Assembly: GCA_964016885.1 (NCBI GenBank)
Contig: OZ024741.1
Location: 286,440,001-286,504,000, forward strand
Length of the DNA: 64,000 nt
DNA from: Eledone cirrhosa
Taxonomy: Eukaryota
Reading direction: 5' to 3'
Shown: piece after piece, positions 44,823 to 57,578 of the stretch
Layout: each line of letters begins with the position of its first letter
Numbering within the stretch: the first letter of the stretch is position 1
Made by a program: the position numbers and the translations under genes
The notes under the pieces: generated by a model
The model's database searches: none
The model's input: the letters and a program-made list of their open reading frames with translations, nothing else
What the model was told of the DNA's origin: nothing

Positions 44823-45282
44823 TAAGTCAAACATATAAAATTTGGCTTCGTTTATTATAAATTCTCTGCTATATATATTTCGGTGAAAGCTATTATTGGC
44901 TGTGACCTCTTCAGGCAGTCCGAATTAATGTCGAAAAGACAGGTAAACATGTTTTTGAAATGTGTTCCACTCTGTCAATACATCGATATGTCCAGCTCCT
45001 GGGTGTGCTGTTAGTCCTCCGAGGAACTGAAATCATATGTATTGATTGATCAAATCGATGTATTGACAGAGTGGAACACATTTCAACAACATGTTTACCT
45101 GTCTTTTCCACATTAATTCAGACTGTCACCGAAATATATATAGCAGAGAATTTATAATAAACCAAGCCAAATTTTACATGTTTGACTTACTCCGGAGTAA
45201 ACAAACCAACCTGCGTACTTCGTCGAGTCCTCCAATCTGCATACTGAGGTGTCGGTAAACAACCAACATATACTCAAAATTT
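44823..45282. repeat. Inverted-repeat cassette (arms 44823-44987 and 45054-45189) between (TA)n tracts
   Basis: Arms are near reverse complements; right arm lacks about 29 nt of the hammerhead core. Confidence 0.92.
44866..44918 (-). ncRNA. Type I hammerhead ribozyme motif, family B (intact core)
   Basis: rc CUGC-CUGAAGA-GGUCACAGCCAAUAAUAGCUUUCACC-GAAA-UAUAUAU-A-GCAG; palindromic stem/loop III as in Penelope-type minimal hammerheads. Confidence 0.8.
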
Positions 45283-46142
45283 ATATATATATATATATAT
45301 ATGTATATATATATAGGAAAAGAATCATGACCCCCAGGGATCCTGGCCCTTTTCCTATATATATATAGGAAAAGAATCATGACCCCCAGGGGTCCTGGCT
45401 CTTTTCCTATTATCCACTCTGTATTCTGGTGCGTTATGGTCTTCCTGGATTCTTACCACACTTTCTTTGTTATATATATATATATATATATATATATATA
45501 TATATATATATATATATATATATATATATATATATATATATATGTATGTATATATAACATATATATATATATACATATATATATATATATATATATATAT
45601 ATATATATATATATATATATATATATATATATATATATATATATATATATATATATATATATATATATATATATATATGTATGTATATATAACATATATA
45701 TATATATATATATATATATATATATATATATATATATATATATATATATATATATATATTCAATATTATTGAGGTATAATAGTATTTATATTTAGTAAAA
45801 CAAATTATAGTTAGCAAAAATACATTTAATACCAAACGCAATTTTACTTACAATATTAGTAAATCTAATTACATTGCTTATACCGCGGCTTTTTATTAAA
45901 CCATATGCATTTTGGGATGTTGAAGTTAGTCGTCTTCTTTGCTTTCAAACCAATACAAGTCAATTCATTCGAATTCCCTTCCCTTGCATAGGCTTATTTC
46001 TCTGTAAGACAATCTTACTGCTGATCGAATTATCTTAATTCGCTGATTATCCATTTAATTATATTAATTAGTATTTACTTTGTCGTTCGAAACCACGGTA
46101 TAAGCTAGTATAATTGAATTTATTAATTATAATGTAAGTATA

Positions 46143-46359
46143 AGGGCGGTGAATTGGCAGTATTAGTAGAGAGTCGGACACCATGCTTTGCAGCATAGAG
46201 TTACGTCCCTTTATGGTCTGAGTTCAAATTCTGCCGAGGTTAATTTTGCCTTTCATCCTTACGGCGTCGATAAAATAAAGCACCAGTAACGTACTGGGGT
46301 CGAGTTAATTGACTTTCCCCTTCTCCCAAATTACTGGACTTGTGCCTATAGTAGAAATC
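46143..46359 (+). mobile_element. tRNA-derived SINE with TSD
   Basis: 19-bp TSD ATTAATTATAATGTAAGTA at 46122-46140 and 46360-46378. Confidence 0.9.
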
Positions 46360-46472
46360 ATTAATTATAATGTAAGTAAAACTGAATTTGCCTTTAAATG
46401 TCTTTTTACTTATAAAGTTTAGTTTTACTAAATATTAATATTATTATACCTCAATAATATTGTATAAATAAT

Positions 46473-46662
46473 TGTTTCTACTTTTGGCACAAGGCCAGCA
46501 ATTATTCCAGTGTATTACTGGTACTTTATCTTATCGACCCGGTAAGGATGAAAGGCAAAGTTAATCTCGGAAGGATTTTAACACAGACCATAAAGGACCG
46601 TAACTCTTTGCTGCAAAGCATGGCGTCCGACCCTTTTCCAATACTGCCAATCCGCCGCCCTT
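46473..46662 (-). mobile_element. tRNA-derived SINE with TSD
   Basis: 14-bp TSD ATTGTATAAATAAT at 46459-46472 and 46669-46682. Confidence 0.88.
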
Positions 46663-46833
46663 GTAGAAATTGTATAAATAATGCTCGAAAAAATTTCGAT
46701 TTTAGCCCTTAATGTTCATTGGGCTTTTTATGGTATAATTGGATTGAGATTACTTATTTATACATACATACATACATACATACATACATACATACATACA
46801 TACATACATACATACATACATACATACATACAT

Positions 46834-47345
46834 GGTGGCTGCCAACTCGTTTTCGAGTACGGTCACTACTTTATATCCATGTAGGAGAACCCCTACCGAG
46901 GCGCTGAACAAGTTTGACTTTTTAGTCCAGCCAGCGACTTGAAAACTCTGGTACAAACACTACACTTGTGACAATTATTGACACATAGTGCTGGGTCCAT
47001 GGTACCATGTGATGACAAGTGCAGAGAGATCTCCAGATATAAAGCAATGCCTGTGCCGTGAAGCTTTTATAGTGAGCAAAGGCACTGCACAAAGCCAGTC
47101 CCACTCTCTTAACCAAGATGATATTTACCAAAAAAGAAGAACAAGTCAACATCATTGGATACCATCAGGGTGGCAGGTGTTATATCAGAGTTTTCCTTCT
47201 CCTAGAATTCTGCCTTGACAAAGGCTAAGGGGTCATCTCTCCCGGTGATTTTAGATGGCCATTGACTCTTAAGAGCTCCTTTGCCCTTTGACAGGTTTTG
47301 TCTTTAGTCCTGCAGGATGTCCAAAGTCACCCTCCTCACGAAGAA
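46834..47345 (-). mobile_element. Non-autonomous RTE-derived element, copy 2 (5'-truncated)
   Basis: Near-identical to 14834-15345; TACA repeats on both sides. Confidence 0.7.
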
Positions 47346-54535: not shown

Positions 54536-55948
54536 ACATGCCTAAGAAATGCCTAAGAAACTTTTCTTAGAAATGCCTAAGAAACACCATTGATCATTTC
54601 GGCACCTCTACGATTCCCCTAGGAGTTACGTATTCATATATATATATATATATATATATATATATATATATATATATATATATATATATATATATATATA
54701 TATATATATATAATACATTAACAGAGAAAGCTTTAAGCAATACTCCGACCGGCTTCCGTCTCACTCAACAAACATTAGGATATACGTTAGTATAATCCCA
54801 ATTATACGTTTGGGGTGCTAACTATATGTATTTTGCGGATAGCCAGTTGTATTATTTTATATGAGACATTATTATATATATATATCATTTAAATCTTCTT
54901 CAACTGGCAGTCTGCTGCCTTTAAAAAGGGGTGAGGCATTAATGTATCTGTGATAGGTGTTCAAGCTATTTTTCAAGCATGTTGTCCTACATGCATTATG
55001 CTTTAAAAATAGAGCCCGCATTTACAGCTTGAACAGCTATCATAGGAGGGGTGAAATGAGAAACAACAACTATATGAGTATTTGAAGAGAAAGAGAAAAC
55101 GACAATGAAAAAACAGAAATTTGAAAATGACAATGAAAATATGTAGTAATATGTACTGAAACAGTAAGAGTTAGATCCCTTGAAAAAGCTCAAAATTAAT
55201 GAAAGGGGTGTAACTCTAGAAATTATATTCTAATAGTTAAGTTATTATTACGCAGAAATTACTGAGTAATTTTAACATTGTCATTGCTCTTCTCTGTCTT
55301 AACATCAACCATAATAAACGACACCGACGTTTGTATATCTATTCGACTATAACTCTTTTAATTATACACAATGCATTTCCTATCTCAGTCATCTTTCTAC
55401 AATACGTTCGCTTTCCAATCACAACGCCCTGGAATATATTTATCCCTGTAAATAGTTATTTCTCGAAAGTTACTCATATATTTAATTCTCTGTGTCACTT
55501 GTATATATATGTTAAAATTTTATGCAATTATATCCTAAAAATATCATTTTATTTTTAATCGCTTCTTGTCGCTAGTAAACATAAACTATGCGGTTTCTGT
55601 TATATAAACCATAAAATTATTGAAACTCAAATTTCCTAGTTTGTGTGACAATTTATGTATCCAGTAATCCTGGTATATATGGCATAACATTCATGGGCTG
55701 CAAACATTAAATGTGTTTAACACTATTGCCGCTAATATTGAGGACACTGGTCCACTATTTTCTAAATAATATCCATGGATTTCCAGTATGATTGCCAGCA
55801 ATGATACCAATTTGCGAATTAACGTCACATGAAACTGGGATCAGATCCGGCGGCCTTATGAAACTCCAGACAGACTTTAACTAACGTCACATTATAGAAA
55901 ATACTGATTTACAAAAAGCACAATACACTATTATTATTAATAGATACA

Positions 55949-56136
55949 AGGGTGGTGGATTGGCAGTATCGGTAGAGGGTCGGACGCCATGCTTTGAAGC
56001 ATAGAGTTACGGCTCTTTCCATTCTGAGTTCAAATCCCGCCGAGGTCAACTTTGCCTTTCATCCTTACGGGGTCGATAAAATAAAGTACCAGTAATGTAC
56101 TGAATAATTGCTGGCCTTGTGCCAAAACTAGAAACA
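55949..56136 (+). mobile_element. tRNA-derived SINE with TSD
   Basis: 16-bp TSD ATTATTAATAGATACA at 55933-55948 and 56137-56152; A and B boxes. Confidence 0.92.
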
Positions 56137-56884
56137 ATTATTAATAGATACAGTTCCGTGTGAATGTGTGTCTCTCTGTCTGTCTGTTTGTCTCTGAATG
56201 TGTGTGTGTGTGTGTGTGTGTGTGTGTGTGTGTGTGCGAGTATGTGAGTCTGTGTGTGTCGGTGTCTGTGTTTGTCTACGTTATTGGGTATATGTGTATC
56301 TGTATCACGGTGTGTGTCGCTGTGAGTCTATGTCTCACTGTGTGTCTGTGTGTGTGTATGTGTGTGAGTGTGTGTGTGTCTCGCTGTGAGTCTATGTTTC
56401 ACTGTGTGTGTGTATGTGTGACTGTGTGCCTGTGTGTGTGTGTGTCTCGCTGTATGTCTCACTGTGTGTCTGTGTGTGTGTGTGTTACTGTGTGCCTGTG
56501 TGTGTGTGTCTCGCTGTGAGTCTATGTCTCACTGTGTGTCTGTGTATGTGTGTGTGTGTTACTGTGTTCCTCTATGTGTGTGTGTTACTGTGTTCCTCTG
56601 TGTGTGTGTGTGTGCGTGTGTGTATGTGTGTGTGTAGCAGAAGTTTCTTAATCATATCAATTTAAACATACGATTCCTAAAAGTTGGCGTTATCATCTTG
56701 TGGATGATGCTGAAAATTCAAGCGAGATACTGGAAGGAAAAGACAGTGTGGGGGGACTCGTTGGGGGAAAAGTAGGGGCAAAGAATGCAATTTACTTTGT
56801 TAAGATGTCACCTTTAGTTATTCAATAGATATTTAAATTTACTCCCTCGCCATCGATTTCTACGGCGATTGCTCCGGTTATACA

Positions 56885-57105
56885 ACAGAACAGCCTGCTC
56901 ATGAAATTAGCGTGCATGTAGCTGAGCATTCCATAGAAACGTGTATCCTTAACTTAAAGTTTCTGGGATATTCAGGGTGAATTACAGTGTCAACTTATTT
57001 TTTGCCAGCTTCTGGGTAGGAACAACGTTAAATAACGTGTCTTGCTCAAGGAACCGAACTCACAACCTTAGAATAATAAACTGAGCACCTTAACCACGCG
57101 CTTTC
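56885..57105 (-). mobile_element. Degenerate octopus OR/CORE-like SINE
   Basis: CTGCTCATGAAATTAGCGTGCA..CTGAGCA, GTGTCTTGCTCAAGGA (rc of a CORE-like motif). Confidence 0.5.
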
Positions 57106-57522
57106 ACAAAATGATTAAGTAAAATAAAATAAAAATATTGAAATTTAATTTTTTATTGATAAATATTGATTATCTTTATAGTGATGAAATATACTATCTG
57201 AAAGGGGGCTGACAGTCCCCTAACATTTGTCACAGATGAAACCAGATTTCTTCATTCAGTAAGTTTTAGGATATTTGATACTGTAATATTCTGGCGTATA
57301 TATATATATATATATATATATATATGTGTGTGTGTGTGTGTGTGTGTGTGTGTGTGTGTGTGTGTGTGTGTGTGTGTGTGTGTGTGTGTGTGTGTGTGTG
57401 TGTGTGTGTGTGTGTGTGTGTGTGTGTGTGTGCGTGTGTGTGTGTGTGTGTGTGTGTGTGTCCCAAGGCTCTGAAACCATCAACACTATACACACAGAGC
57501 GGCCATATCTAAGAACTGACTA

Positions 57523-57578
57523 ACTGCCTGATGAGGTCATAGCCATTCAATGGCTATCATCAAAATATATATAGCAGT
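57523..57578 (+). ncRNA. Hammerhead motif, family B, probably inactivated (G12>A)
   Basis: ACUGC-CUGAUGA-GGUCAUAGCCAUUCAAUGGCUAUCAUC-AAAA-UAUAUAU-A-GCAGU. Confidence 0.72.

Follow-up and report, generated by a model that had tools for sequence, protein, structure and literature searches.

Hammerhead motifs of Eledone cirrhosa as probable ends of Hydra-clade Penelope-like retrotransposons

A stretch of 64,000 nucleotides (nt) of the Eledone cirrhosa genome (positions 286,440,001 to 286,504,000 of contig OZ024741.1, assembly GCA_964016885.1; hereafter, the window) carries three copies of a hammerhead ribozyme motif. From the sequence alone, an original prediction had assigned them to one old, diversified family of ribozyme-bearing solo pseudo-long terminal repeats (pLTRs) or retrozymes. 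Re-reading of the window confirmed all three copies at the positions given in Table 1. With good confidence, we consider these motifs to be the hammerhead-bearing pLTR ends of three subfamilies of Hydra-clade Penelope-like elements (PLEs) residing in (TA)n, whose short copies likely arise from capped, uncut RNA that is copied from internal points to its 5' end. The observations behind this reading are the linkage of the motifs to coding sequence for a reverse transcriptase (RT) and, C-terminally to it, an endonuclease (EN) of the GIY-YIG type, motifs of the Hydra clade, two fixed 3' ends, one preferred 5' end, and insertions with head-to-head inverted arms.

Hammerhead copies in the window and their subfamilies

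In all three copies, stem I is followed by CUGA(A/U)GA and a long stem II that is mismatched (C.C) at its fourth position, and then by (G/A)AA, AUAUAUAU, position 17 (A or U), and stem I again. Downstream of each copy, AATAAA (44856-44851, 47520-47525, and 57580-57585), TTGACTTA (44830-44823, 47545-47552, and 57605-57612), and (TA)n follow in the order that had been predicted, and the two predicted G12>A changes are present in copies 2 and 3. The upstream sequences had been called dissimilar; they are diverged yet homologous, and all copies have CATATG, the motifs CAACAC and CATATC, and a CCAAT box. The predicted covariation stood in part: the outer stem I pair covaries between copies 2 and 3 but is A.A in copy 1, and stem II conserves its C.C mismatch, but G10.1>A breaks its first pair in copy 2 and one further pair has decayed in copy 1, where stem I is 4 bp long. 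Copy 1 begins at a fixed 5' site, CATATG, whose C is at 45039, and stops about 10 nt before the usual first 3' end, where (TA)n follows, and copy 3 is flanked by (GT)n on one side and (TA)n on the other. A fourth piece, overlooked in the original prediction, is the inverted arm next to copy 1, the ribozyme core of which was removed by a 29-nt deletion.

Table 1. Features of the three hammerhead-bearing copies in the window
Feature	Position (strand)	Description
Copy 1, subfamily A, short pLTR copy	44823..45039 (-)	Locus L001; -124 to +92 relative to core C3
Copy 1 hammerhead, type I minimal	44866..44918 (-)	Core intact, with G12 at 44881; cleavage predicted after A at 44870
Filler	45040..45053	14 nt separating two head-to-head arms
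Second arm of the copy 1 insertion	45054..45283 (+)	Inverted, 5'-truncated; tail of about 100 nt to second 3' end, then (TA)n
Bulged hairpin	45187..45229 (+)	At tail start; last base changed here; found likewise at A, B, and C loci
Copy 2, subfamily B, pLTR fragment	47370..47563 (+)	5' truncation about 40 nt inside fixed 5' site; stops at first 3' end
Copy 2 hammerhead	47454..47512 (+)	G12>A (47496), G10.1>A, U at position 17; predicted inactive
Copy 3, subfamily C, short pLTR copy	57459..57626 (+)	Locus L061; -69 to about +100; fixed 5' site to first 3' end
Copy 3 hammerhead	57523..57578 (+)	G12>A (57562), remainder as subfamily majority; predicted inactive

A strict hammerhead descriptor found 6 matches in the window, compared to a mean of 0.02 (maximum of 1) over 100 shuffles; the other three of these matches belong to a different family near 36.8-37.3 kb. 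An Rfam scan of the window returned no hammerhead among the 150 matches listed of 152 at E<=1. Copy 3 folded better than its shuffles (z of -2.8), whereas the remaining two copies had z values of 0.0 and -0.2, and the minimum-energy structures of copies 1 and 2 did not contain the hammerhead fold, as expected of a minimal motif. Covariation was assessed on 25 of about 90 copies, hand-picked across the subfamilies and forming related rows. In this set, 93.2% of 396 cells were paired, compared to at most 59% in slid controls, and 4 of 18 pairs showed two-sided changes. In outer stem I, the pair is G-C in B and A-U in C but unpaired in A, the inner stem I pair changes from C-G to U-A inside subfamily B, and one stem II pair is C-G in A and U-A in B and C, to which two scattered cells with two-sided changes are added. 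The covariation score was matched by 1 of 500 shuffles and the number of covarying pairs was reached by 404 of 500, both to be read against the relatedness of the rows. The covariation is modest, about three events, and is consistent with the fold rather than proof of it. Subfamily B (loci L031-L060) comprises two variants, one with a C-G inner stem I pair mostly accompanied by U17, and the other with U-A mostly accompanied by A17.

Copies 1, 2, and 3 represent three related subfamilies, A, B, and C, respectively, each of which retrieves its own set of close matches. A first look at the 3.0-Gb genome provided 1,258, 2,190, and 1,299 candidates for copies 1, 2, and 3, with best matches of 96%, 93%, and 97% identity, and exact genome matches of a shared 17-mer, which covers G12 together with the cut site, number 7,737, compared to 1 for the reversed control. 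Between A and C, identity is 75% in the RT and 59% in the EN region. The original prediction of an old, diversified family was half right: there are three subfamilies instead of one, and C has expanded recently, since its best matches are nearly identical to each other.

It had been set out beforehand that the family consensus should read GAAA rather than AAAA, and GAAA was indeed the majority. Of the 3,084 C copies, the first 100 include 94 with GAAA, along with one CAA and one TGA. With a CUGANGA core and GAAA, a UH cut site, and three helices, the motifs have the hallmarks of a type I hammerhead. In the best matches, G12 is retained in 27 of 29 A, 23 of 29 B, and 29 of 29 C copies, and G12>A was found in 2, 5, and 0 of 29, respectively. 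As most copies keep GAAA, the AAAA of two window copies corresponds to decay. CpG decay, proposed as its cause, fits B (transitions in 21 of 174 CpG cells, or 12.1%, versus 38 of 1,170 other C/G cells, or 3.3%), fits A less clearly (10 of 229, or 4.4%, versus 25 of 1,420, or 1.8%), and is not visible in C (0 of 116); this tally omits the three window copies and columns with a majority under 70%.

Other elements were noted in the window. At 36795-37264 there are three copies of the different hammerhead family mentioned above, with cores at 36849 (-), 36916 (+), and 37253 (-) and a 9-nt stem III arranged like that of Hydra-1_Obim in the table of PMC8557442, forming two fold-back arrangements. 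At 38890-40075 (-) lies the decayed RT-EN region of a Hydra-like element that is more distantly related, with 31-43% identity to the proteins of A and C. Short non-coding palindromic or tandem elements are found between (TA)n runs at 36497-36600 and 45304-45410, and similar ones lie beside many of the fetched loci.

The host element

The designation as solo pLTRs was right and can be made more exact, in that the motifs form the ends of Hydra-clade PLEs, the coding parts of which reside elsewhere in the genome. Some copies run on upstream. Among 30 A-upstream and 30 C-upstream loci, there are copies that have over 1.4 kb of upstream sequence in common and encode a GIY-YIG-type EN located C-terminally to the RT. 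For B, 6 of 20 upstream loci match the EN on the same strand in a tblastn search. The locus L154 is a near full-length C element that consists of a partial upstream pLTR, the hammerhead, the tail, an open reading frame (ORF) of about 880 codons that is interrupted by stops and one frameshift, a 3' untranslated region (3'UTR) of about 1 kb, and a second pLTR; a hammerhead is present at the 5' pLTR and a remnant thereof at the 3' pLTR. L160 and L163 show the same organization for subfamily A. By motif recognition, A and C possess a single ORF encoding the RT followed by the C-terminal GIY-YIG EN, and B shows the EN only.

The N-terminal motif is RWK in A (L160) and RWR in C (L154), DKT replaces DKG in both, the linker reads CNCRDPSLC (CxCX5C), and the EN contains CNLC (CxxC) and CRH (CxH). 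No CCHH pattern was evident by eye inside the GIY-YIG core. RWK, DKT, CxCX5C, CxxC, CxH, and the lack of CCHH are features of the Hydra clade according to section 11 of PMC8557442, and by this match the elements probably belong to that clade. Their insertions are flanked by (TA)n, as for the Hydra clade, and the repeat unit of about 3,990 nt exceeds the size of less than 3 kb given for this clade in general, which is a tendency rather than a strict criterion (PMC8557442, in the part available). Naiad/Chlamys elements, which have an N-terminal EN and for which no canonical hammerhead is expected, were ruled out by the C-terminal EN and the hammerhead present here.

Some additional features of these loci deserve mention. 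A long Pro/Thr/Arg-rich stretch lies between the RT thumb and the EN (L154:2760-3400) and occurs in diverged forms in A, B, and C; it is not described for Hydra in section 11 of PMC8557442. RT fragments of other PLE families were found within 1.5 kb of copies at L002, L071, L078, L084, L138, and L151, which would be expected of several families with common (TA)n targets. At L002, a long RT frame that seems to leave the inverted arm is most likely due to a nested insertion into another Hydra family. Subfamily A also includes kilobase-scale head-to-head inverted insertions (L158 and L163).

The alternative designation as retrozymes was not supported. Among 85 loci, a set that excludes five duplicate or second-arm loci, a tandem of the same family was found in none, and the second same-strand motif present within 1.5 kb at 2 loci belonged in both cases to another family. 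The absence of tandem arrays also bears on the notion that the short copies form an independent non-autonomous family, either a monomeric retrozyme or a SINE-like (short interspersed element) family, transcribed from its own loci. Their defined ends and the fact that they far outnumber the coding copies would agree with such a family. However, in long copies the same sequence runs on into the 3'UTR and ORF, and the short copies lack the upstream CCAAT box and, when they stop at the first 3' end, also the downstream hairpin, so that this explanation appears very improbable.

Fixed ends of the short copies

The 3' ends fall into two clusters. Measured from the core, 15 of 30 A copies end at +90 to +104 and the other 15 at +190 to +202, whereas B copies are distributed 21 to 9 over the first and second cluster, and 29 of 30 C copies end at the first. 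These ends, at about +100 or about +200, correspond to the optional tail of PLEs. A hairpin follows the first 3' end, with 30 distinct matches across A, B, and C, most of which consist of two stems and a 2-nt bulge, and another follows the second 3' end, with 3 matches (A and C); the motif search was written to that shape and is not an unbiased test. The hairpin at 45187..45229 is predicted to mark the first start of reverse transcription. When the sequence just 5' of the first 3' end was folded, two B copies formed a hairpin that ends in TTGACTTA, which two A copies and one C copy did not. AATAAA was considered as a working poly(A) signal; no poly(A) tail was found in any copy read. In the PLE of Anolis carolinensis termed PAc, two 3' ends are RT start sites inside the RNA, and internal RT start, two start sites, and an uncut RNA template have been reported in vitro (PMC11167929, as far as available).

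At the opposite side, one 5' end is preferred. In C, 849 of 2,291 copies extend 6 nt upstream of ATATG, as compared to 2,080 of 2,649 at a 6-nt control step just inside, which implies that about 53% of C copies begin at one site. By direct reading, 23 of 30 best C matches end there, as do 7 of 17 in an unselected sample. Subfamily A clusters at the homologous site, with 13 of 30 copies within -125 to -123, a number that includes both arms of one insertion. The CCAAT box, TGACCAATG, is located upstream of the fixed start by 46 nt in A, 47 nt in B, and 50 nt in C. The purine preceding A+1 is frequently G: 81 G and 19 A were counted in C (first 100 of 175), 27 and 10 in A (n=37), and 13 and 1 in B (n=14), compared to 14 and 17 at a control site (n=31). 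In L1, an untemplated 5' G has been read as the copied mRNA cap (PMC9341517, in the part available). The fixed start and the extra G fit an uncut RNA that bears a cap and is reverse transcribed from internal points. In one inverted insertion (L229/L230), both arms start at the fixed site with an extra G. In a sequencing run in contig form, compared with L154, 17 contigs had loose ends running into (AT)n at the fixed 5' site, as did 23 contigs at the first 3' end; the kind of run is unrecorded, it may stem from the sample of the assembly itself, and its depth gives no copy number, so that it is not counted as support.

The same 5' end could be a truncation hot spot, at which the cDNA anneals to (TA)n via ATAT microhomology and which has no link to the transcription start. 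The site reads ATATG, most copies adjoin (TA)n, and some copies (L007, L022, L027, L031, L034, and L178) stop at a second site, CATATC. Yet the longer ATATATATA of stem III, which the enzyme meets earlier, is almost unused as a 5' end. Fusions of (TA)8 at the ribozyme cut site account for at most 16 C copies, compared to 3,084 copies that span this site and about 1,200 that stop at the fixed site, and 5 of the 12 cases read are stem III expansions in whole ribozymes; copies starting at the cut site are hence rare. A hot spot would also leave unexplained the site-specific excess of G and the CCAAT box at a fixed distance in three subfamilies, and we regard it as quite unlikely. Solo pLTRs might also result from recombination or deletion between two pLTRs, as suggested for rotifer PLEs (PMC3846280), and elements with two direct pLTRs do exist (L154). 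With this process, the upstream pLTR would keep its variable 5' extent instead of starting at a single fixed base with an extra G, which makes it extremely improbable here.

The place of the hammerhead on the copying path needs to be considered in the same context. In one model, paired ribozymes cut unit-length RNA, which is circularized and reverse transcribed through the re-ligated junction (PMC4209133). This route could account for copies that extend upstream of the fixed site. In its favor, the core is retained in most copies and, with compensatory changes, across subfamilies; in addition, stem III is palindromic, L154 is a partial tandem with two pLTRs, and a circle and an uncut read-through RNA would leave identical long copies. 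A circle has no 5' end, however, and cannot yield fixed-start copies with an extra G, and ribozyme mutants of PAc had no effect on insertion in vitro (PMC11167929). As the main path, the circle is unlikely, but a role of the hammerhead in processing is possible, given that long copies fit the uncut read-through RNA and the re-ligated circle alike.

A number of observations weigh against a capped, uncut template of a Hydra-clade element. The extra G was found on only about 12% of the estimated 1,200 C copies stopping at the site. Among the 16 G junctions read in C, one is templated by an inverted arm and 8 could equally be a 5-nt duplication of the first letters of the element; among the 10 read in A, three are templated or represent a substitution in a long copy and two are arms of one insertion, so that the A excess is weak and shrinks to 7:5. 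Five of the 13 B cases with G form one local cluster. The stops at the second CATATC imply that microhomology with (TA)n contributes. Furthermore, the cap, transcript, and cleavage steps were all deduced from DNA junctions. As to the host element, Pfam provided no RT or GIY-YIG match in three ORF-fragment proteins; the clade assignment relies on motifs and by-eye likeness to published Hydra proteins and is best seen as probable; no intact ORF was present among 14 long loci, and the RT of subfamily B was not recovered. The five clustered B copies have the same junction base and lie within 40 kb (G000:C2:231652555-231691650), probably as a result of local duplication.

Proposed copying route and comparison with known systems

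In the route that we favor, namely, reverse transcription of capped, uncut RNA, an RNA polymerase II promoter in the pLTR, composed of the CCAAT box and a C/A initiator, would start transcription at the A of CATATG. Ahead of the ORF there would be a leader of about 310 nt with the hammerhead, AATAAA, and two bulged hairpins, and the RNA would continue through the ORF into the next pLTR. The EN would nick (TA)n and the RT would prime just 5' of either hairpin. Priming in the leader would generate a copy of 170-330 nt that stops at the cap, as proposed for window copies 1 and 3, and an early stop of the RT would give rise to copy 2. Priming in the 3' pLTR would result in long, randomly truncated copies, and two priming events in an inverted pair, one side of which carries a tail. 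A weak hammerhead is predicted, which would cut either as a dimer via the self-complementary AUAUAUAU or with the help of a protein (PMC4209133); the computed self-duplex of stem III amounts to only -3.2 kcal/mol. In the templates of the short copies it is predicted to be uncut and dispensable for these insertions.

A more far-reaching and tentative possibility, which we consider doubtful, is that half of the Hydra-clade insertions are copies of the capped leader only, made by hairpin priming, that solo pLTRs would hence arise directly from transposition and record the transcription start to the base, and that the hammerhead cuts only paired RNAs, acting as an abundance-dependent brake instead of a processing step. 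Its location between the cap and the start codon has led us to speculate on such a brake on expression.

As a class, these elements are known, with published hammerheads in the pLTRs of PLEs and published Hydra elements from an octopus. Subfamilies A, B, and C are a new set of families of a known kind, which the supplement of PMC8557442 or Repbase could already hold. No description of start-site-bounded solo pLTRs with a cap G in PLEs was found in the open-licence literature. The thousands of junctions form a genomic record of how PLEs copy themselves. The fixed, G-marked 5' end suggests a capped, uncut template, in agreement with one in vitro PLE study, and bears on the role of PLE hammerheads. 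Exact positions can now be named for the putative promoter, start site, and two priming sites.

Clear parallels exist with the Hydra clade, including Hydra-1_Obim (Craig et al. 2021, PMC8557442), which comprise the single RT-EN ORF, the protein motifs, (TA)n targets, a type I hammerhead near the 3' end with an A/U cut site, and an inverted 5'-truncated arm and tail; the accessible part of that paper lists an octopus member and hammerheads with an A/U cut site. The elements reported here differ in their unit of about 4 kb instead of less than 3 kb, the Pro/Thr/Arg-rich stretch, the 3'UTR of about 1 kb, and a tail of about 100 instead of 30-40 nt. The long stem II with its C.C mismatch and the all-A/U stem III set them apart from every hammerhead in the table of that paper; the ribozyme of Hydra-1_Obim has a different design and is not this one. 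With the known dispersed hammerheads they share a helix I of 4-5 bp, a long helix II, a palindromic helix III, the G10.1-C11.1 pair, and the occurrence as many single motifs, with several families per genome and some opposite-strand pairs 100-700 bp apart, but they lack an extra unpaired base between A9 and stem II, their helix II reaches 12-13 bp, and it contains the C.C mismatch.

Animal non-LTR retrozymes, which are defined by a tandem arrangement of ribozyme-carrying units (Li, Clavereau, and Pollet, bioRxiv 10.64898/2026.07.22.740005, in the part available), resemble the short copies in their type I hammerhead, a non-coding unit of a few hundred nt, and their relation to PLEs, whereas no tandem units were found in the 85 loci of this study. 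Another similarity is that to PAc, a Poseidon element (Frangieh et al. 2024, PMC11167929), in which two internal RT starts define the tail, targets are AT-rich, and the template is uncut. PAc belongs to another clade, however, and its ribozyme and both 3' ends are located inside the ORF, whereas they precede the start codon here, where the copying route is derived from genomic sequence. As in Penelope of Drosophila virilis (Schostak et al. 2008, PMC2377424, as available), transcription would start within the upstream pLTR, but the promoter of Penelope is internal and TATA-less and features a downstream promoter element and an intron, whereas a CCAAT box lies upstream of the putative start in the E. 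cirrhosa elements.

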